Shown piece by piece: positions 2,651 to 38,513 of a stretch of 44,234 bases of DNA (its first letter is position 1; every line of letters starts with the position of its first letter). Source of the stretch: a virus (Duplodnaviria; Caudoviricetes); IMG/VR virus record IMGVR_UViG_3300033067_000403, positions 1-44,234 of that record. One strand, given 5' to 3'. Under the pieces are notes generated by a model that saw only the letters and a program-made list of their open reading frames with translations, had not been told where the DNA came from and ran no database searches. Both the position numbers and the translations under genes were made by a program.

Positions 2651-3204
2651 TTTGTCTCCTGTAGTTCTGGATTGTACATAAACTCAAGCAAGAACATGGC
2701 GTTTACAGCAACTGCTGACATATGGCTCATGTTTGGCTCAGTGCTTTCATGGTCAATAATTTCACCACGGCGAATAGCTTCAAAATGCCGCATTAGAGCG
2801 TCCATATAACGCTGCCTAGCCTCAGGGACTTTCTGCCAGTTATTACGCTCTTTATACTTCTTTAAACCCGCTGTAAGGTTACGTGCAACCTCTTGCAAAG
2901 CATAAGGAGGGACAAGCGTGTACTGAATCTTACCGTTGTCGTATTTAGTACCGGGAATTTGCTCTTCTACAGCATTTGGATTCCAAGCTTGCATTTGTTG
3001 TGTATCAGATCGCAAATCTACTTTTGTTAGTGTAGAAGCAGGTACAAAATAAGACTCTGTATCAGAACAATTCACAACCTTGTTTGCCAATTGACAACTT
3101 CTGAGATCGTTATTAAATGCACATAAATCACAGCCTTGTACACTACCAGCATCAAATACAGGTGTGTATACCTTACCATCAACTAAAAGATCATTTAAAT
3201 TCAT
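2647..3204 (-). CDS. dATP/dGTP diphosphohydrolase-like (DUF5664-type) protein with Cys-rich N-terminus
   Basis: GTKYDNGKIQYTLVP...GLKKY...NNWQKV...YMDALMRHF...D.ES...H...VAVNAMFL pattern. Confidence 0.8.
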   Translation of the reverse strand: MNLNDLLVDGKVYTPVFDAGSVQGCDLCAFNNDLRSCQLANKVVNCSDTESYFVPASTLTKVDLRSDTQQMQAWNPNAVEEQIPGTKYDNGKIQYTLVPPYALQEVARNLTAGLKKYKERNNWQKVPEARQRYMDALMRHFEAIRRGEIIDHESTEPNMSHMSAVAVNAMFLLEFMYNPELQETK

Positions 3205-3206
3205 GT

Positions 3207-3710
3207 TCAGTTCTCCTTAAAACCATTCAATAACAAATCTGCAGGGATGCAATTAGATAAATCATTGCTTTCAAATCCGATTGGTTTCATTACTTTATCC
3301 TTCAAATTCTTAATCACAAATAGATCGTAAAGAGAATTGTACTGTACTTCGACTTGAACACCGTCTGCTTCATACATTTGAGCAGTCTGAATAGCAGTCA
3401 GTTCTTTAGAAGGGAACTTTGTTAGGTTATTGTAAGCAGTGTCTCGCATTGCTTTGTTCATATCTACACCAAGGTGTTCAAGCTTTTGAGCCAGTCCTAA
3501 TGCAGTAACTAAAACATCGACTACACCGTCTACAACTTCTTTAACGTTGTTCTTGTCGATACCTTTTTCTTTAATCTCTTTGGTTTCTTCGTAGATCAGT
3601 TTGTATTGAAAGTCGATATCTTTCAAAGTAGTTAGATCGTGCTTACCTGCAATCTCATTGAAGGCGTAACAATCTAATTGAAAATCTGAAATATTGTAGG
3701 TACTAATCAT
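3207..3710 (-). CDS. All-alpha NTP pyrophosphohydrolase (MazG/PRA-PH-like)
   Basis: LIYEETKE...EVVDGVVD...NNLTKF...KVMKP motifs. Confidence 0.75.
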   Translation of the reverse strand: MISTYNISDFQLDCYAFNEIAGKHDLTTLKDIDFQYKLIYEETKEIKEKGIDKNNVKEVVDGVVDVLVTALGLAQKLEHLGVDMNKAMRDTAYNNLTKFPSKELTAIQTAQMYEADGVQVEVQYNSLYDLFVIKNLKDKVMKPIGFESNDLSNCIPADLLLNGFKEN

Positions 3711-10050: not shown

Positions 10051-10548
10051 TCAAGGGTTGTATTGAGTAAATACTGTGCAAGTGATTTCTTTTGGCTGAA
10101 CAAAATGCCAACCACTATAATCATTACCGTTATAAGAAGAGTAGTTGCAGTTAACTTGAATGTATCCTTTAACTACTGTATCTTCAAAAACAGCAAATAT
10201 AGTATACACTGGATATTCGCTTAAATCATACTGATCGACTAAACTGTTAACAATTTTTTGATCGTACAGTGGATTATCAAAAGTTGCCGAATCGTATACC
10301 AAAGACAGGTTCTGATCTTTCAGGTATTCATTGATAGAGTCTACATATGAACCGTCTACGTGTTGCCCACGCATATAATCTGTAATTTTATGCGAGTTAT
10401 TTTTTACATAAGCAGCAAAGGCTGTTTTAAAGCGTTGGTTCCAAGGTAGTTTGCTACGAAGTTCTTTGATTTTATCTTGAGCTTCTTTTTGAATCTGAGC
10501 AATCTGTTGCTCTACTGTCAGTTCTGTTACAGTTTTAGTTCGTGCCAT
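10051..10548 (-). CDS. Hypothetical protein, divergent third paralog with N-terminal coiled coil
   Basis: C-terminus YIQVNCNYSSYNG...VQPKEITCTVF aligns by eye with the two neighbours. Confidence 0.75.
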   Translation of the reverse strand: MARTKTVTELTVEQQIAQIQKEAQDKIKELRSKLPWNQRFKTAFAAYVKNNSHKITDYMRGQHVDGSYVDSINEYLKDQNLSLVYDSATFDNPLYDQKIVNSLVDQYDLSEYPVYTIFAVFEDTVVKGYIQVNCNYSSYNGNDYSGWHFVQPKEITCTVFTQYNP

Positions 10549-11353
10549 TTTCCAGTTCCTTTCTAATATTGTCAAACCTCATTGTATCACACAAATTGAA
10601 GATTTCAGGATAATTGTCGATTGCAAAATCTCTGAACCATCCACTACAAAGTGTAGTACAAACTTTATCGAGAGCTTTAAGGTACGCATGTCGAACTGGA
10701 TATTCCCAATTTCTAGGTACAAGAAAACGCTCAATTGCAATAACCTGTGTCTCTTCAGCTACGCACTTGAGTTTATCGTCAAATGCAAGCTTATCCCACA
10801 AATCTTTGTCACACCATGCACTGCTTGGATCACGCTGCAGTTGAGTATACAACGGTTTATCGTGATACGCAACAAGTTCGTGCAAATAATCATGATTGTA
10901 TTTCTTTTCTACGTAGTCATCAAAGAAATCTTCTACGGACTTCTTCAAACTAGGATGACCTTGGGGATACTCTTTCATTGTGCAAGCTGTGCGGTTTTTC
11001 AGCACATGTTCATCAAATGCAGTAAATGCAGGACGATATCTTGCAAGATGCTTATGATAGTGTGTAATGTGCTTTTGAAAGCTTAGATCACGCCACAGGT
11101 GACTTCGTTTGATAATTGCAAGACCAATTGGATTAACGATGTACACACGCTGACCTGCAATTTCAATAAACTGCTCAGAAGCGTATCGTTCCATATCATA
11201 GTTGCCTACAGTATTGAAATCATGCAATTCAATGCGCTTGGTATCATCAACAATTCCATGCAAACTAATAATATCCCAGTCGGAAGTATCTCTAGCTTTA
11301 AAGTCTGGACTCCAGTACTCTAGCGCACGAGAACCAATCAATAGATTTTTCAT
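10535..11353 (-). CDS. Putative nucleotidyltransferase-fold protein
   Basis: N-terminal LLIGSRAL...SDWDII (hGS...DxD); IKRSH, FF, HDYLHE, EETQVIAIER, TTLCSGWFRDFA motifs. Confidence 0.65.
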   Translation of the reverse strand: MKNLLIGSRALEYWSPDFKARDTSDWDIISLHGIVDDTKRIELHDFNTVGNYDMERYASEQFIEIAGQRVYIVNPIGLAIIKRSHLWRDLSFQKHITHYHKHLARYRPAFTAFDEHVLKNRTACTMKEYPQGHPSLKKSVEDFFDDYVEKKYNHDYLHELVAYHDKPLYTQLQRDPSSAWCDKDLWDKLAFDDKLKCVAEETQVIAIERFLVPRNWEYPVRHAYLKALDKVCTTLCSGWFRDFAIDNYPEIFNLCDTMRFDNIRKELENGTN

Positions 11354-11366
11354 TTCTACTCCTTAG

Positions 11367-11458
11367 TTATAGTAAGAGATACTAACACAACTCCTGCATG
11401 TGGGAAGCACTCGTTTGTTAATCTGACACACCACCATCACTTTTATCTCTTACTATAA
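11367..11458 (-). ncRNA. Candidate small RNA closed by a perfect 15-bp stem
   Basis: TTATAGTAAGAGATA (11367-81) and TATCTCTTACTATAA (11444-58) enclose 62 nt. Confidence 0.55.
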
Positions 11459-11460
11459 GT

Positions 11461-11582
11461 AGCCATAGTTCAGTATATTCCGTATCTTAGTTCCTCGTCA
11501 TGCTTTAGCTCACATGCGTCATAAAACCCAAATAGTAAACCACGTTCGTTAACCCAACCTGAAATATACTGAACTATAACCA
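11461..11582 (-). ncRNA. Candidate small RNA closed by a perfect 15-bp stem
   Basis: ATAGTTCAGTATATT (11465-79) and AATATACTGAACTAT (11563-77) enclose 83 nt; the stem extends with G-U pairs only on the minus strand. Confidence 0.55.
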
Positions 11583-11583
11583 C

Positions 11584-11816
11584 CAGTCCCTAAACTGGTA
11601 TTATAGTGTCTTTTCGCTCCCGTAGAAGTTTTCACTCCTATTCTTCGTTACGCTTTTTGGACGACAATCCTCAGGCCTTAGACATCCTAGTGTACCACAC
11701 CATCAGTACATCTATTTTTCCAATTGCAAATCTGCAGGTTGATAGGGCTTTCACCTACCTCGCTTGAAGTGTGCCGCTAACTCTAGGGATTTGAGCAACA
11801 AGCATAAGCGGGACTA
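11584..11816 (-). ncRNA. Candidate ~230-nt multi-stem structured RNA
   Basis: 5' UAGUCCC can pair with 3' GGGACUG; several internal hairpins, two with UGAAA loops; no ORF of 60 aa or more; within the tRNA transcript. Confidence 0.5.
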
Positions 11817-11822
11817 ATTTTA

Positions 11823-11926
11823 TGAAGAAGCTGGAAGGACTTGAACCTTCGACTCGCCTAGTACGAATTTACCTGTACTATCGACAGTAACCTGCCCAAT
11901 GACTCTACCAACTGAGTTACAGCTTC
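11823..11926 (-). ncRNA. tRNA-like RNA with a non-canonical anticodon/variable region
   Basis: Acceptor GAAGCTG/CAGCTTC, D-arm ACTC-AGTTGGTA-GAGT, T-arm GAAGG-TTCAAGT-CCTTC; ~50-nt insert with two hairpins; ends TTCA rather than NCCA. Confidence 0.75.
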
Positions 11927-11931
11927 TATTC

Positions 11932-12008
11932 TGGTGCGAGTGGAGGGATTCGAACCCCCGACCGATGGTGTAGAAGACCAGTGCTCTATCCAACTGAGCT
12001 ACACTCGC
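11932..12008 (-). tRNA. tRNA-Arg (UCU)
   Basis: 77-nt cloverleaf GCGAGTG...CACTCGC-ACCA, loop CT-TCT-AC. Confidence 0.93.
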
Positions 12009-12017
12009 TTAACCTTT

Positions 12018-12047
12018 ATTATACAACAGTTTAGACCATATCGTCAA
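12018..12047 (-). promoter_or_regulatory. Sigma70-like promoter for the tRNA/ncRNA cluster
   Basis: TTGACG-18-TATAAT, 9 nt upstream of tRNA-Arg. Confidence 0.7.
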
Positions 12048-13770
12048 GCTGTTGTGTAACTAATTGTCGAATTTCTTCTAGACTAGTTTCTTTGATCATC
12101 CGACCATCTTTAAAGACAGTTTGTAGACAACCTTGTGTTTCTTGCTCTTTGGTCTGCTGATCGTATAAAACAAAAGTATCACCTTCTTTCTCAACTCGCA
12201 GTAGACCTTTAGCTGATTTTTTAGTTCCGCTATCAGTAACAGGGTCTTTGTACAATTCAACACCAACACCGTTGATTTCAGCGTAAGTAGCTTTCATTGC
12301 AAAACCAAAACTATCACGAGTGACGTACTGGTAAGTATAAGAGCCGATGCCAAATACAACGTTACTGGAAGCAAAACCTTTGTCTTGTAGACGCTGCAAG
12401 ATATCTGTTGCACGATCTAGTGTAATTGAATCACCGTAGATCAAGCCAACACGTTCATTCAGCATCTTAAAGCCATTATCGTTAATTGTACCACCGAAAA
12501 TATCCCACAGAGTTTCAACTGCACCTTTTTGTTCAGGTGTTAGTTCAACTGGCTCGAAACTTTCCAACTTACAACCTTCCATATAGTAGTACTGTTTATC
12601 GTAACGACTCCAATCAATTTCTACTGTGGCAAGATAGACAATACCATTGTATTTAAAATAACCAGATACTTCCCAATTTCCCATCTCACCATGAACTGAC
12701 TCGATGCTTTCACGCTCATAAAGTACATCTTTAGCCCAATTTTGTGCATCTTCTAGGCTAATTGCATCGTTTAGGTTGACTACCGTAATACCACAAAGAA
12801 TATCAGCTGGATCACCACTATCAGGACGGAATACAACTTTAGCTAGACCAATCTCATTTGGAGTACGAGCCAGAATTTCTTGTTTCAGATTAGCAGAAGT
12901 CACCGATAGAGTGTGCCAGAAATCCCACGTATCGCTTACGATGCTGACTACACCAGAAGGATGTACTTCAGTAATCAAACGGCGGAATGTTTCTTCTTCG
13001 GTTTCTTTACCACCGGCACACATAACAGAGTGTTCAGTAGCTGGAACAGAACCACCTACAAACGCATTAAAACCGCCATAGAAGGCCTCAACGTAATCGA
13101 TAGCTGGAATGGTATCAGTACCAAAGAAACCAGCTGCCAAGTGACCGCTTGCATTGGATGCATCATCTACACCACTCAAACCACGATAGCTAAAGTCATG
13201 ACCTTGCCAAAGGACGAAATCCAAAGGCGCACCAGTAGCTTTAGCATAGCGAGTGAGAATCTTACGATATTCAAAAGCAGTTGTAGCAGTAGTGATCTTT
13301 TTCCAGAGTTCATTACTGAAAACTGTTTCCAGATAGTTAGTCAACCAGAAAAATTCAGGAAGTGTGTTTTTGACAGTGAACACTGGAACTTTGATATCAA
13401 CCAGTGAACCTTCTGGCAATGCTTTGATTTCGATAGGCAGGTAGCCTAGATCGTGCAAAGCAGCAATGTGTGAAGAATCAACTGCACCTTGACCAAGCGC
13501 AACATCCATACGGCGATTGTATTTTGCAAGGACTTCAATCTTACTTTTATGGAAGAAATTGTTATTGAATTGTTCAATCAAGAAAGACTTAATAAAGCCT
13601 TGCAGACCATAGAAGAGAACTTTAGTTGGCTTAACACCACCAGCATTAGGGGCTAGTTTGTTAGACCGAGGTGTAAAGTTGCTGTAAATAACTTCTGTAC
13701 CTTTTGGGTACATAGCTTTGTGGCCTACTTTGTAGAAATCGCAAGCTGTGATTGGATCGAGATATGTCAT
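12031..13770 (-). CDS. nadV: Nicotinamide phosphoribosyltransferase family protein (probable Namat of NARP1)
   Basis: DFYKVGH, HDFSYRG, GTDT, SVPATEHSVM, SIVSDTWD, RPDSGDP, LIYGDSI, KDPVTD...KKSAKG. Confidence 0.93.
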   Translation of the reverse strand: MTYLDPITACDFYKVGHKAMYPKGTEVIYSNFTPRSNKLAPNAGGVKPTKVLFYGLQGFIKSFLIEQFNNNFFHKSKIEVLAKYNRRMDVALGQGAVDSSHIAALHDLGYLPIEIKALPEGSLVDIKVPVFTVKNTLPEFFWLTNYLETVFSNELWKKITTATTAFEYRKILTRYAKATGAPLDFVLWQGHDFSYRGLSGVDDASNASGHLAAGFFGTDTIPAIDYVEAFYGGFNAFVGGSVPATEHSVMCAGGKETEEETFRRLITEVHPSGVVSIVSDTWDFWHTLSVTSANLKQEILARTPNEIGLAKVVFRPDSGDPADILCGITVVNLNDAISLEDAQNWAKDVLYERESIESVHGEMGNWEVSGYFKYNGIVYLATVEIDWSRYDKQYYYMEGCKLESFEPVELTPEQKGAVETLWDIFGGTINDNGFKMLNERVGLIYGDSITLDRATDILQRLQDKGFASSNVVFGIGSYTYQYVTRDSFGFAMKATYAEINGVGVELYKDPVTDSGTKKSAKGLLRVEKEGDTFVLYDQQTKEQETQGCLQTVFKDGRMIKETSLEEIRQLVTQQLDDMV

Positions 13771-13779
13771 ATTACTCCT

Positions 13780-14589
13780 TTAGATAACGGTAACTGATTG
13801 TGCTTTTTGAACCATATCGTTCATCAAGTTGTGAACGTAGATTGTATCATAGAATTTTAGAAGTTCTGCTACTCCTTTAGAAAAAATTCCATGTGTTACA
13901 TACAAATTCAGGCTTTTGATATTTGGTTGTGTACGCCAGAGCATTTCAGCCAAAGACAAGAAAGTTGCACCACCGTCACAGATATCGTCCACTACACAAA
14001 CTTTACCAGAGATTGTATCATAAGCATAGTCTTCATAGATCACACGACCATCTTGCCGAACCTTATTAAGCGTAAAAACTTTAGTGTCAAAGCCTCGTAC
14101 CTGAAAGTAAGTATTAACTTTTGCACTAGCACCTTTGTCTGGTGCAATCAAAGCATCAAATCGAGGTAGATATTTAGCGCAGTCAGCTTGAGATTTGTTT
14201 TCAACCTCAAATAGATATTTACTAAACACCTCTAAAGATGCAGAACTATGAGCATCACACATTACAAGTTTTGAAAACCATGCATTAGCTACAATAGTAT
14301 TAGCGAATACTTGCAATGCAAAACTTTCACCTTGAGTGCATACACGATCTTGGCGACCATACGGTAGGTATGGGATATGCAACTCAATATTTTTAGGATT
14401 AACCGTTTGTCGAAACAAAGCGTCCAGAATATTCAAACATACAAAAATGTCATCCGAAGAAGGCATACGCATCCACACTTGGACTTTATTTTGTTCAGAG
14501 ATTTGTGGAATCTGTACGCCAACTTCACCCGCTGGAAAGTTCCATTGTTTAAAGTCCGTTGTCACTCCATCAATTTTAAGTTCAACCAT
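13780..14589 (-). CDS. prs: Ribose-phosphate pyrophosphokinase family protein (probable Adps of NARP1)
   Basis: FPAGE, PYLPYGRQDR, DAHS, PDKGA, VVDDICDGGATF, LYVTHGIFSKG; start moved to ATG 14589. Confidence 0.9.
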   Translation of the reverse strand: MVELKIDGVTTDFKQWNFPAGEVGVQIPQISEQNKVQVWMRMPSSDDIFVCLNILDALFRQTVNPKNIELHIPYLPYGRQDRVCTQGESFALQVFANTIVANAWFSKLVMCDAHSSASLEVFSKYLFEVENKSQADCAKYLPRFDALIAPDKGASAKVNTYFQVRGFDTKVFTLNKVRQDGRVIYEDYAYDTISGKVCVVDDICDGGATFLSLAEMLWRTQPNIKSLNLYVTHGIFSKGVAELLKFYDTIYVHNLMNDMVQKAQSVTVI

Positions 14590-14773
14590 TTGTAGTTCCT
14601 TTCGTAGAATGCTCAGATTGTACATCAACTTTTCTCAGGATGTTCATCTTTACATTGAGACTTGCCAATTTATTTAAATCGGCTTGAGGCATAGACATGC
14701 TGGACCGCAAAACGCCTTTGTCATCGTACTGTTGTAGAGTTTGGTACTCTTTATTGTATTCGTATCGATTCAT
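14582..14773 (-). CDS. Hypothetical protein
   Basis: 63 aa ORF in operon. Confidence 0.6.
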   Translation of the reverse strand: MNRYEYNKEYQTLQQYDDKGVLRSSMSMPQADLNKLASLNVKMNILRKVDVQSEHSTKGTTNG

Positions 14774-19711: not shown

Positions 19712-20758
19712 TTAATCTCCTGTCTTAATCAACCATTTGTTACTAATTGACTTAAAACTGCGATCATGTACCGTATTGCTCTTAAACACAACACCTTCTC
19801 GTTCACTGCCATTTAGCACTGACTTACCCTCTGCAAATTCAATAATGCTTTGGAGTGTTTGATATTTAATATCAGTAGCTTCAACCAAGATAGGTACGTG
19901 CTTTAGACCTAGACGTTCACATGCAGCTTTAAGCTGTACAGGCAAGATGTATTGCCCTGTGTTCGTATTGTACATGTCGTAGACGTAGAAGTCAAGCTGT
20001 GTTTTGTACTGGTTGCCTTGGATACCTTCACCAATCATTTCACCTTGAATAGCCATACCCTTCATAAAGTTTCGGCGCATGATATCTTCAATTTGAAACT
20101 TACGTGCTACTTTCCAGAATGAATTTGCTTCGTCTTCTTTCAAATCAAGATTACGAGAGCATACGTGAAATACGTCTTCATGGTCAAGATAGAACGTAGC
20201 AGAAGAACCATCGAGCTTTTCAGTGATAGACCAGCTATCTTCTTGGTACTTCTCAAAAGATCGGGTCAGGTTCTGAATACGCTCTTGGTCAGTCTTTGGT
20301 ACTAGAGGTGGGAAATTACCTCGTGCCATACCAGCGAGTTGAGCATTCATTGGGCGTTCCCACTTTAGGATACCCAATGCTTCGGTTACATCAAAACCTT
20401 CTTCAATGCGTACTTCACAAGAAAAACCCAAACCTACATCTGGACCATTATCAGTTAAAATAGTAATAGGCAGCAACAAACCCTGTGAGATTTGACCACG
20501 TAGTTTTACAGTACGTAGACGCTCACCCTTTACACCTTCAAATTCACGAGGCTCTTTACCTTTGGATAGAAATGGTGCAAGATTTGTTGGAACCCAAGAG
20601 TCAATTTCAAGGTACACAGCAAGATTATCCTCTGCATATTCACCTTTCTTGACTACTACTTTCCAACCATCGACTACAGCTACTTCAATAGCGTCTGCAC
20701 CTTCGATGGGTTCAATACCGGCAATCTTACGAATTGTTGCGAGTTTACGTTCTGTCAT
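19712..20758 (-). CDS. RNA ligase, DRB0094/Rnl5 family
   Basis: RKLATI...IEGADAIE...LRGQISQGL; PKTDQERIQN; TEKLDG; GE; REGVV; FKSISN. Confidence 0.9.
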   Translation of the reverse strand: MTERKLATIRKIAGIEPIEGADAIEVAVVDGWKVVVKKGEYAEDNLAVYLEIDSWVPTNLAPFLSKGKEPREFEGVKGERLRTVKLRGQISQGLLLPITILTDNGPDVGLGFSCEVRIEEGFDVTEALGILKWERPMNAQLAGMARGNFPPLVPKTDQERIQNLTRSFEKYQEDSWSITEKLDGSSATFYLDHEDVFHVCSRNLDLKEDEANSFWKVARKFQIEDIMRRNFMKGMAIQGEMIGEGIQGNQYKTQLDFYVYDMYNTNTGQYILPVQLKAACERLGLKHVPILVEATDIKYQTLQSIIEFAEGKSVLNGSEREGVVFKSNTVHDRSFKSISNKWLIKTGD

Positions 20759-29142: not shown

Positions 29143-30024
29143 ATGATGCTGACTTACGAACAACAAATGAATCTAGTTAACCGTGGTCTTGCTACGCTTA
29201 AAAACGATGGTAAGTACACTACGTTTAAATACGCTCGTAAGGCAATGTACGACTACCTCTGGTATAAAGTACCTGAGTTGACGAACTGCCGTGGGCACGT
29301 ATATTGCAATACTACTCATGAACTCGTGCAAGCTGCTCCAAAGAAGAGTTTCAATTATCTTGAAAAAGATTACTGGAAAAATATACCTTTGAACACGCCA
29401 GTTGAAATGTACAAGAAAATCAATGGCTTTATGGCCTGTGTTACTCTGCATAATAATGAAATTGTTGTATCCACTACTGGTACAACTACAAGTGAATATG
29501 CAAAATGGGCTAAAGAGTTAATTCTTCAAGATTGGTCTATCTACGATATGGTTATTTATCCTGATGTTACTACTCTATTTGAAGTGGTTGTACCTCAAGA
29601 CCCTCATATTGTTAAAGAACGTGAAGGTTTACATCTACTCGGTGTACGTGAGAAAGATAGCGGTAAGTTTCACCCAATGGGTAAAGTTACTCGTTGTTCC
29701 CTAGAACAAGCACTAGAGATTGCAAAGCATGATCGTGGTGAAGGTTTCATGATGTACCCAATGTACTCTGATAGTCGAGCCTACGATTACGACAACTGTT
29801 GTAAAATCAAGAGTGATTACTACGTAGGTAAGAAGAAGTTGATGCGTATGACAGCAAAATTTGTTGAAGTAATGTACAATAATCCTACTGCTATTGCTAT
29901 GCAATTGCCAGAAATGTGGTATGATGCACCTGAGTACATTGTACGAAAGATCACTAAAGATGCTTGGTTAGCCTCTTCTGATCAAGAACGCAGATTAATT
30001 CTTGAAGATTTAAAAGGAGTTTAA
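29143..30024 (+). CDS. RNA ligase, T4 Rnl1-like
   Basis: CRG, KKSFNY.E, KINGF (motif I), STTG, LFE...DPHIV, EGF, KIKS.YY. Confidence 0.8.
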   Translation: MMLTYEQQMNLVNRGLATLKNDGKYTTFKYARKAMYDYLWYKVPELTNCRGHVYCNTTHELVQAAPKKSFNYLEKDYWKNIPLNTPVEMYKKINGFMACVTLHNNEIVVSTTGTTTSEYAKWAKELILQDWSIYDMVIYPDVTTLFEVVVPQDPHIVKEREGLHLLGVREKDSGKFHPMGKVTRCSLEQALEIAKHDRGEGFMMYPMYSDSRAYDYDNCCKIKSDYYVGKKKLMRMTAKFVEVMYNNPTAIAMQLPEMWYDAPEYIVRKITKDAWLASSDQERRLILEDLKGV

Positions 30025-37753: not shown

Positions 37754-38203
37754 ATGCGAAAGATTCAAGCTGTCTACCGTGGTGCAACTTCCGAAACTGG
37801 CAATGAAACCAAAGATTGCACTGTTCGTGCTTTGGCAAATGCAACAGAGATGCCTTACGAGAAAGCTCACGCTCTCTTGAAAAAGCACGGACGTAAGGAT
37901 CGCAAAGGCGCTTTCTTCCCTACAATGCAAGCTGCCTATCAAGAAGCTGGCTTTGCATTGTATGGTGTCTACGGTACGACTCGTGCGGCTCGTTATACGG
38001 CTCGTATTAGCAATCGAGAGGCACAGACTGGTATCACCTTGGCAAAACTCCTGCCTAAGCTTGGTTTTGGTGAATACATCGTCAATACAACTGGTCACGC
38101 TGTTGCTGTTGTCAATGGCAAGATCATCGATACGTTTGACAATCCAGCTGGAAAGCGAGTTATCGCTGTCTTCAAAAAAGTCGAAAATAATTTCGGCATT
38201 TGA
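37754..38203 (+). CDS. Putative papain-fold (peptidase C39-like) protein
   Basis: DCTVRALA...GHAVAVVNG.IID, possible Cys-His-Asp triad; AGGAG RBS. Confidence 0.6.
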   Translation: MRKIQAVYRGATSETGNETKDCTVRALANATEMPYEKAHALLKKHGRKDRKGAFFPTMQAAYQEAGFALYGVYGTTRAARYTARISNREAQTGITLAKLLPKLGFGEYIVNTTGHAVAVVNGKIIDTFDNPAGKRVIAVFKKVENNFGI

Positions 38204-38249
38204 TCAAAACTGTGCTACAATCAAGTCTTCAACAACTGAAAGGAATCAT

Positions 38250-38513
38250 ATGTCTAGCTCTAAAGTTTTCGCCTCTTTGATCGAACAATCCAACGGTAAG
38301 ATGGTTACTGTATCCTTTATCAAAAAGGACGGTTCATTGCGTGTTTTGAATGGTCGCCTTGGTGTCAAGAAGTATCTCAAAGGTGGTAAGATCAATACCA
38401 ATACCGATGAATACATCAACATCTATGATGTAAAAAACCAAGGTTATCGCAGCATCAACCGTAGCACTATCGTGGCTTTGCGTATGCAAGGTATCGAAGC
38501 AGTCGCTATCTAA
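38250..38513 (+). CDS. SH3-like beta-barrel phage protein
   Basis: VTVSFIKKDGSLR...YD....GYRSI. Confidence 0.75.
   Translation: MSSSKVFASLIEQSNGKMVTVSFIKKDGSLRVLNGRLGVKKYLKGGKINTNTDEYINIYDVKNQGYRSINRSTIVALRMQGIEAVAI

Follow-up and report, generated by a model that had tools for sequence, protein, structure and literature searches.

Among the orphan stable RNAs of phage tRNA clusters are rnaC and rnaD of T4, the T5 RNAs, GOLLD and ROOL, which have gone for decades without a function. In T4, rnaD (species 2; 119 nt) and rnaC (species 1; 139 nt) are stable RNAs located directly 3' of tRNA-Arg in the tRNA cluster (GenBank), with functions given as unknown in the available parts of PMC9697503 and PMC12685909, and in T5 the orphan stable RNAs RNAI, RNAIII, RNAIV, RNA2H and RNA1-3 are interspersed with the tRNA genes (GenBank). 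According to the accessible portion of PMC12286853, ROOL and GOLLD RNAs are phage-borne near tRNA islands, contain multiple pseudoknots, kissing loops and A-minor motifs, have no known function and, in the case of many GOLLD RNAs, are longer than 800 nt. A further structured RNA of aquatic phages, manA (RF01745), may contain a pseudoknot and is cis-acting, being found in the 5' UTRs of metabolic genes in marine samples and cyanophages, as far as the available text of PMC2864571 goes.

Here, we describe an uncatalogued structured RNA family that belongs to this known broad kind and that combines an unusual fold with a testable maturation step. The window, i.e., the whole stretch of DNA that was analyzed, is a linear IMG/VR virus record of 44 kb (44,234 nucleotides; completeness estimate of 57%) with genes for a DNA polymerase, a primase/helicase-sized protein, RNA ligase, NAMPT and a Prs-like protein. 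The window phage is related to Limnohabitans phage DC31, which is the sole cultured record with similar DNA across the RNA locus. On the minus strand, a sigma70-type promoter is followed by tRNA-Arg(UCU), a tRNA-like module, the structured RNA, two long stems and a DUF7277/DUF7275 gene, as follows:

12018..12047, minus strand: operon promoter, sigma70-type, TTGACG-18-TATAAT, consensus match of 11/12
11932..12008, minus strand: tRNA-Arg(UCU), the first module of the operon, from Rfam and ARAGORN searches
11826..11926, minus strand: tRNA-like module, separate and optional; acceptor, D and T arms are present, the central part is non-canonical
11573..11816, minus strand: structured RNA, predicted mature span; the 5' end is approximate, after an A/U-rich spacer, and the 3' end comes from the RNase III consensus
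11460..11582, minus strand: P9, long stem with 15-bp perfect arms and an insert of ~80 nt, overlapping the base of hairpin P8 (z = −6.2)
11573/11572 and 11468/11467, minus strand: predicted RNase III cuts, from consensus fit
11364..11461, minus strand: second long stem with a different insert, 18-nt arms that are 94% complementary, reaching the ribosome-binding site (11364-11359)
10535..11353, minus strand: DUF7277+DUF7275 protein gene (PHROG 2141), a downstream neighbor and no required partner

Promoter-like text is also present upstream of tRNA-Arg at related loci, and 5 copies of the RNA (of 152) have a promoter-like site directly 5' of it. The tRNA-like module (11926-11826) reaches 42.6 bits with the Rfam tRNA model in a focused search only, folds with z = −2.95 and has a single match, in L011, among the first 23 loci; we observe that a GUUA-capped hairpin and a second hairpin replace its standard anticodon arm and that its 3' end reads UCA, not CCA. 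The DUF7277+DUF7275 gene was not found in the three complete carrier genomes by a search whose positive control worked; the GS...DxD pattern at the N-terminus of its protein presumably resembles that of pol-beta nucleotidyltransferases.

Like the T4 and T5 stable RNAs, the family is a non-coding module that lies within a phage tRNA operon on the same strand as the tRNAs, and each of the 561 tRNAs called in the loci has the orientation of the RNA. However, at 165-250 nt it is longer than rnaD and rnaC, and the family covariance model found nothing above 6 bits in the T4 region with filters off (E of at least 1.1), a best score of 7.3 bits in the T5 tRNA region and no match in the whole T5 record. 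With ROOL and GOLLD, the family has in common the tRNA-island setting, A-rich contacts and (likely here) kissing loops, but it neither exceeds 500 nt nor matches a ROOL or GOLLD family model, and manA was likewise without an Rfam match to the structured RNA. Rfam 15 returned no match on the RNA in the window (E up to 10) and none among the matches listed (best 150 of 160) for 20 diverse homolog loci, and neither ARAGORN nor Rfam found a tmRNA, with its tRNA-like domain and tag reading frame. The first-pass annotation, made from the window alone, had proposed a new class of structured non-coding RNA adjoining tRNAs and had suggested an Rfam search as a check; the proposal is borne out by ~150 covarying copies, the absence of Rfam matches within that scope and a model that misses the T4 and T5 stable RNAs. 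A literature search covering few subscription papers gave no description of the family; the words "noncoding" and "non-coding" do not occur in the available part of the DC31 paper (PMC12195039), and the family motifs are absent from the searched part of the supplements of Fremin et al. 2023 (PMC10690425), among whose 10,006 candidates the family may be included.

The first homolog set consisted of 22 viral loci, found via the downstream protein, plus DC31; the full RNA was present in 19 of these 23 loci, with three copies truncated by contig ends and one locus (L009) without the RNA. Further homologs came from short-motif scans with subsequent profile confirmation, which retained 80 copies in 80 loci, 84 in 105, 42 in 44 and 85 in 94 metagenome loci in the respective scans. 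Since all homologs were found by short motifs, conservation is overstated for any motif used in a scan. In GTDB, 18 loci matched the pattern and one of them belongs to the family; it lies on a MAG contig of 2.5 kb, probably a piece of phage that was mis-binned. Another candidate, L308, was rejected as a chance pattern match. Deduplication left 155 rows, or 152 without L491, L523 and L527, which are mis-anchored at the 3' loop; these three were dropped from the 152-row tallies and the 39-arm test described below and kept in the 155- and 151-row tallies, the stem lengths at control positions, the RNase III offset scan and the tree counts. Anchoring at the 5' loop seems to be wrong in three others (L011, L311 and L429), which all tallies include. 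A strict subset contained 118 sequences with a median identity of 64%, and its 83 representatives with <93% identity were aligned with plain MAFFT, unfitted to the fold (alignment A1).

In total, the structured RNA has ~150 distinct copies, nearly all of them on viral or metagenome contigs, from freshwater phages. Their length ranges from 165 to 250 bases, with a minimal form of ~165 nt and shortest family-model matches of 161-171 nt; on the window, the model matches 11570-11818 with 163.5 bits. Carrier genomes of ~76-80 kb, and complete ones of 102, 162 and 163 kb, have one copy each. In a blastn search with five family members, DC31 was the only match among cultured phages, and plasmids gave nothing; the RNA is missing at the same locus in L009 and from phage P26059A. 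The RNA moves as a stand-alone module: of the 155 rows, 48 have a tRNA within 25 nt upstream of it, 18 have a long stem as the upstream neighbor and 89 have something else, no tRNA was called inside the fetched flank at 25 of the 155 loci, and the 3' neighbors vary among tRNAs, other stems and genes, with no fixed downstream gene. Two contigs (8 of 24 runs, as assembled contigs) touch the RNA, a metatranscriptome contig of 191 nt that spans 11586-11791 only and one of 2324 nt that starts near 11805; we do not count them as evidence of a discrete RNA, because their stops differ and contigs cannot show ends.

Single-sequence folding was unremarkable relative to shuffles (z = −1.0 for the minus strand and −0.8 for the plus strand), so the case for a structure rests on the homologs. 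The elements of the fold in the window are the following:

11811..11814, minus strand: 5' strand of P1, GUCC, pairing with GGAU (11687-11684)
11761..11810, minus strand: P2, long arm with covariation, its loop carrying CCCUA (11788-11784)
11741..11759, minus strand: P3, optional T-loop-type hairpin that covaries, with loop UGNRA plus two unpaired bases
11720..11739, minus strand: P4, optional insert hairpin, in 20 of the 135 copies that have a canonical P3
11715..11719, minus strand: conserved junction A-run; three A columns of A1 are at 83/83 and a fourth is at 82/83
11688..11714, minus strand: P5, hairpin with loop GGU (11701-11699) pairing with GCC (11676-11674) as pseudoknot PK2
11659..11670, minus strand: P6, 4-bp hairpin with loop GUC (11665-11663) pairing with GAC (11610-11608) as pseudoknot PK3
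11615..11653, minus strand: P7, optional insert with the second UGAAA hairpin (11640-11623)
11573..11607, minus strand: P8, long 3' hairpin of ~14 pairs, just 3' of the GAC strand of PK3, its loop carrying UAGGG (11592-11588)

The 56 proposed pairs are paired in 93.2% of the cells of A1, compared with 35-43% for slid controls, and 35 of them show double changes; eight key pairs switch 3-22 times on a tree. At the level of sequence comparison, covariation demonstrates the P1/P2/P5 junction, PK2, P6, PK3, P8 and the overlap between the P8 base and the downstream stem, which makes PK2 and PK3 two sequence-proven pseudoknots, with a kissing loop as the likely third. P1 hardly varies in A1, its sequence having been part of the search motifs; in copies found without the P1 motif both strands change, and double changes affect three of the four pairs, in 7-11 of 40 distinct copies. 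The two pairs of PK2 with the most support have 25 and 17 double changes and at least 13 and at least 8 tree switches, and one pair of P6 has 22 double changes and zero breaks in the 83 copies. PK3 is 100% paired, with 3 double changes that are all at one pair while the other two pairs never vary, and it is written CUC/GAG in 5 of 151 rows. P8 is 96.5% paired on A1, with double changes at 10 of 12 pairs (42 at one of them), at least 10 tree switches and an arm of 14-15 nt in 149 of 152 copies, and the 5' arm of P2 measures 20-23 nt in all 144 measurable rows. Outside the helices, a junction run of 4-6 A and an AA preceding PK3 are each present in 152/152 copies. Nearly every unpaired invariant base is an A, the pattern expected of packing contacts and not of a pocket for a ligand or for catalysis. 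The RNAalifold consensus of A1 placed the 5' GUCC opposite the second GGAY instead of the first; this pairing was rejected, since the strand concerned covaries inside P6 and, in divergent copies, GUCC changes together with the first GGAY.

The motifs listed in the first-pass annotation are all on the minus strand where it had placed them, and the RNA is real, but judged by the alignment much of that first-read fold is wrong. The base of the long arm holds on A1, as does the GUAC/GUAC hairpin (P5) within the proposed UGUACUG/UGGUACA pairing; the inner UGUUGCU/AGCGGCA register of the long arm does not, being 72% paired where a register three columns off does better. The terminal helix UAGUCCC/GGGACUG shows no double change, and its three outer pairs are disrupted in 26, 35 and 19 of 83 copies; GGAUG/CGUCC fails as well, through two pairs that are disrupted in 22 and 69 of 83. 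A local hairpin at the 3' end, read as an alternative to that terminal helix, is real (11600-11581), conserved and longer than suggested (11607-11573, P8), but the switch against the terminal helix is unsupported; the conserved alternative, in which one pairing excludes the other, sets the base of P8 against a downstream stem of RNase III type.

The two UGAAA hairpins had been taken as T-loops for tRNA-elbow recognition, and we regard as largely refuted an explanation by which they dock with each other or with the elbow of a tRNA, in the way known from RNase P and T-box RNAs. P3 (11741-11759) does stand as a hairpin: it is 98% paired on A1, two of its pairs have 34 and 33 double changes, and the T-loop-type loop is present in 135 of 151 copies. 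It is missing, however, in 12 of 151, and the second UGAAA hairpin (11640-11623), present in the window as described, is no core element, since only 24 of 151 copies have an insert where P7 lies. The two are separate optional hairpins, where the RNase P specificity domain and T-box RNAs have two conserved interdigitated T-loops, and tRNA-elbow binding is unlikely as the core job of the RNA.

Two loops, CCCUA in P2 and UAGGG in P8, are invariant and stand on arms of fixed length. In two scans with patterns that contained neither loop, 61 of 63 and 32 of 35 distinct matches retained both, and the misses consist of three contig ends and two chance matches. The loop pair shows no compensatory change; its complementarity and constancy make a kissing interaction, as a third pseudoknot, likely. 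The P2 and P8 loops would kiss and thereby clamp the stacks P1-P2 and P6-PK3-P8 together, and the other end of the two stacks would be tied by PK2 and A-rich strands. Since the two stacks are similar in length, PK2 and the kiss could close a compact particle. Furthermore, the kiss never changes and PK2 changes freely, which indicates that the surface of the kiss is probably read by a third party.

Two other uses of the loops were considered. The first is pairing between molecules, giving protein-free rings or cages like a miniature ROOL or GOLLD; a complementary pair of loops that never changes, carried on arms of constant length, would suit it, and ROOL and GOLLD near phage tRNA islands do use intermolecular kissing loops and A-minor contacts (PMC12286853, accessible portion). 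The similar stack lengths and the PK2 tie nevertheless make an intramolecular kiss look feasible, judged from helix lengths, and the RNA is far shorter than GOLLD (>800 nt) and is without a ROOL or GOLLD model match, so that we consider rings unlikely. The second is mimicry of a codon-anticodon helix, CUA with UAG, by which the RNA would pose as tRNA-Leu or a stop codon to the ribosome or to an anticodon nuclease. CUA and UAG do lie within the invariant loops of an RNA that lives among tRNA genes, but covariation gives a P8 loop of 6 nt and not 7, a G precedes UAG in 25 of 155 rows and thus the U-turn base is not kept, and most tRNA-Leu(UAG) arms called at the same loci differ in the loop; such mimicry is very improbable.

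PK3 with its AA is reminiscent of the guanosine site in P7 of group I introns, which have a P4-P6 domain between P3 and P7 and a canonical strand order. A ribozyme or ligand-binding RNA in which PK3 and the invariant AA form a purine-nucleotide pocket could account for two PK3 pairs that never vary, next to a third that does, with the AA alongside, and hammerhead-like elements occur in the same operons. Here, however, the strand order is opposite to that of group I introns, a P4-P6 domain is absent and has no room, and Rfam gave no group I match. In addition, the restriction of the unpaired invariant bases almost solely to A, a 5' end whose sequence varies freely in divergent copies and the fact that both ends can be explained by other processing speak against catalysis, and we find this explanation quite unlikely.

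Long stems that are processed by RNase III are familiar from the stalks of rRNA operons and the early sites of T7. The stem P9 forms a duplex of 22-24 bp in the window, and 137 of 152 copies have a stem of 14-25 bp, i.e., the length of about two helical turns that RNase III uses, that begins within the final strand of P8, with 8 of the others clipped by locus ends and 7 without a stem. Control positions gave mostly 7-13 bp, and the insert of the true stem is very variable in length.

We scored the stems with the E. coli RNase III consensus (PMC4357697, as given in the part available), which is weak and favors A/U-rich stems; with this caveat, the score peaks at the end of P8 with 9.97 of 16, compared with 5.3-7.2 at 14 other offsets, and of 39 non-redundant arms ~29 score best there. 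The P8 5' strand follows changes in the strand that P8 and the downstream stem have in common. In the computed window precursor the downstream stem wins and leaves the P8 5' strand free, and the cut form has the full P8. The simplest reading, and the predicted one, is that the RNA is set free by cleavage and P8 can then complete its fold: a precursor would form the longer downstream stem instead of the P8 base, host RNase III would cut exactly at the end of P8, and the freed stub would zip onto the P8 5' strand and seal the 3' end of the RNA. In the window, the RNA would thus end at 11573 and the insert 11572-11468 would be released.

This arrangement resembles known RNase III processing stems in its long, consensus-fitting duplex and its interchangeable inserts. 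It differs from them in that the outer strand of the site is also the last strand of the terminal hairpin of the upstream RNA, so that the cut would trigger refolding; the searched literature holds no description of an RNase III cut that refolds the terminal hairpin of an upstream RNA. The seven stem-less copies form a clade (L328, L433, L470, L472, L425, L456 and L286) in which the P8 base differs in sequence and is still paired, and a tRNA-Met is called ~10 nt later in 5 of the 7. At the 5' end, which follows an A/U-rich spacer, no RNase III register peaks among 18 upstream stems, and the varied 5' neighbors suggest that the RNA is the product of processing and not a processing tool.

The same overlap could serve as a folding switch in cis, in which competition between the P8 base and the downstream stem decides the RNase III cut and with it the release of a downstream small RNA, tRNAs or mRNA. 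The mutually exclusive pairings are kept in 137 of 152 copies, and in the clade of the window the stem reaches the ribosome-binding site, both of which speak for a switch. On the other hand, the downstream content (tRNAs, other stems and genes) is not conserved, seven copies have the RNA without the stem, and since the precursor computation favors the downstream stem, the P8 base is more simply explained as the fold that follows cleavage. A switch in cis is in our view not a likely role.

With regard to function, the account that we favor, with about even confidence, is that of a compact, stable, dispensable, trans-acting RNA, transcribed with the tRNA operon and matured by RNase III, that serves as scaffold or decoy for a host RNA-binding partner and would compare with rnaC and rnaD of T4 or with a small ROOL or GOLLD. 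The third party reading the kiss would most plausibly be a host protein of tRNA or translation metabolism or of RNA-sensing defense, and such a partner would give a conditional benefit. The biogenesis part of this account is much better supported than the function, and the trans role and the class of the partner are its least supported steps. As to a possible partner protein, none of 5 records had DUF7275 and 2 of 5 had WYL_2, one of the records being later found to be without the RNA. A tentative variant, which we rate as rather doubtful, is that the host RNase III cut completes the triple-pseudoknot fold and thereby switches on a kissing surface, ring assembly or a catalytic pocket directed against host defense or translation.

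Whichever partner is involved, the family is small and its fold is well resolved from ~150 natural variants; its minimal form is ~165 nt, and its 3' end is predicted. Knock-out, probing, cryo-EM and pull-down are feasible owing to a cultured phage-host pair, DC31 on Limnohabitans. A processing cut that completes the fold of the upstream RNA would, if true, offer a neat route of maturation, and the known RNA architectures would gain a compact fold with three pseudoknots.

Other elements of the window and of related loci were noted in passing. The window encodes a WYL_2 (Sm-like) protein (37953-38513, plus strand) and RNA ligases of two different families (29143-30024, plus strand; 19712-20758, minus strand), which are possible RNA-handling partners, and adjacent Prs-like and NAMPT genes (12031-14628, minus strand) lie directly upstream of the tRNA operon. 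The second long stem (11364..11461) stands in for the first in several relatives, and the predicted RNase III cuts would release small RNAs inside both long stems; the two inserts (11560-11480 and 11443-11382, both minus strand) appear as conserved small RNAs common to relatives, and the stem of a hairpin in the first of them seems, by eye, to have changed on both sides. In L227, L252 and L430, a hammerhead-like element (CUGAUGA ... GAAAC ... GUA, found by eye) lies ~10-100 nt upstream, and its cut would land just 5' of the RNA. In DC31 (L001), a small ORF at 3082-3445 with HNH-like motifs, again by eye, is flanked by a 5'-end fragment of tRNA-Arg and by a non-canonical tRNA-Arg that ARAGORN does not call. 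Other structured or tRNA-like modules that look uncatalogued swap in and out of the operons, several of them closed by a similar long stem; we observe them in the upstream flanks of L003, L017, L018, L021, L427, L448 and L454 and at 4270-5250 of L551, and Curvibacter phage P26059A carries a different module set at the same locus.
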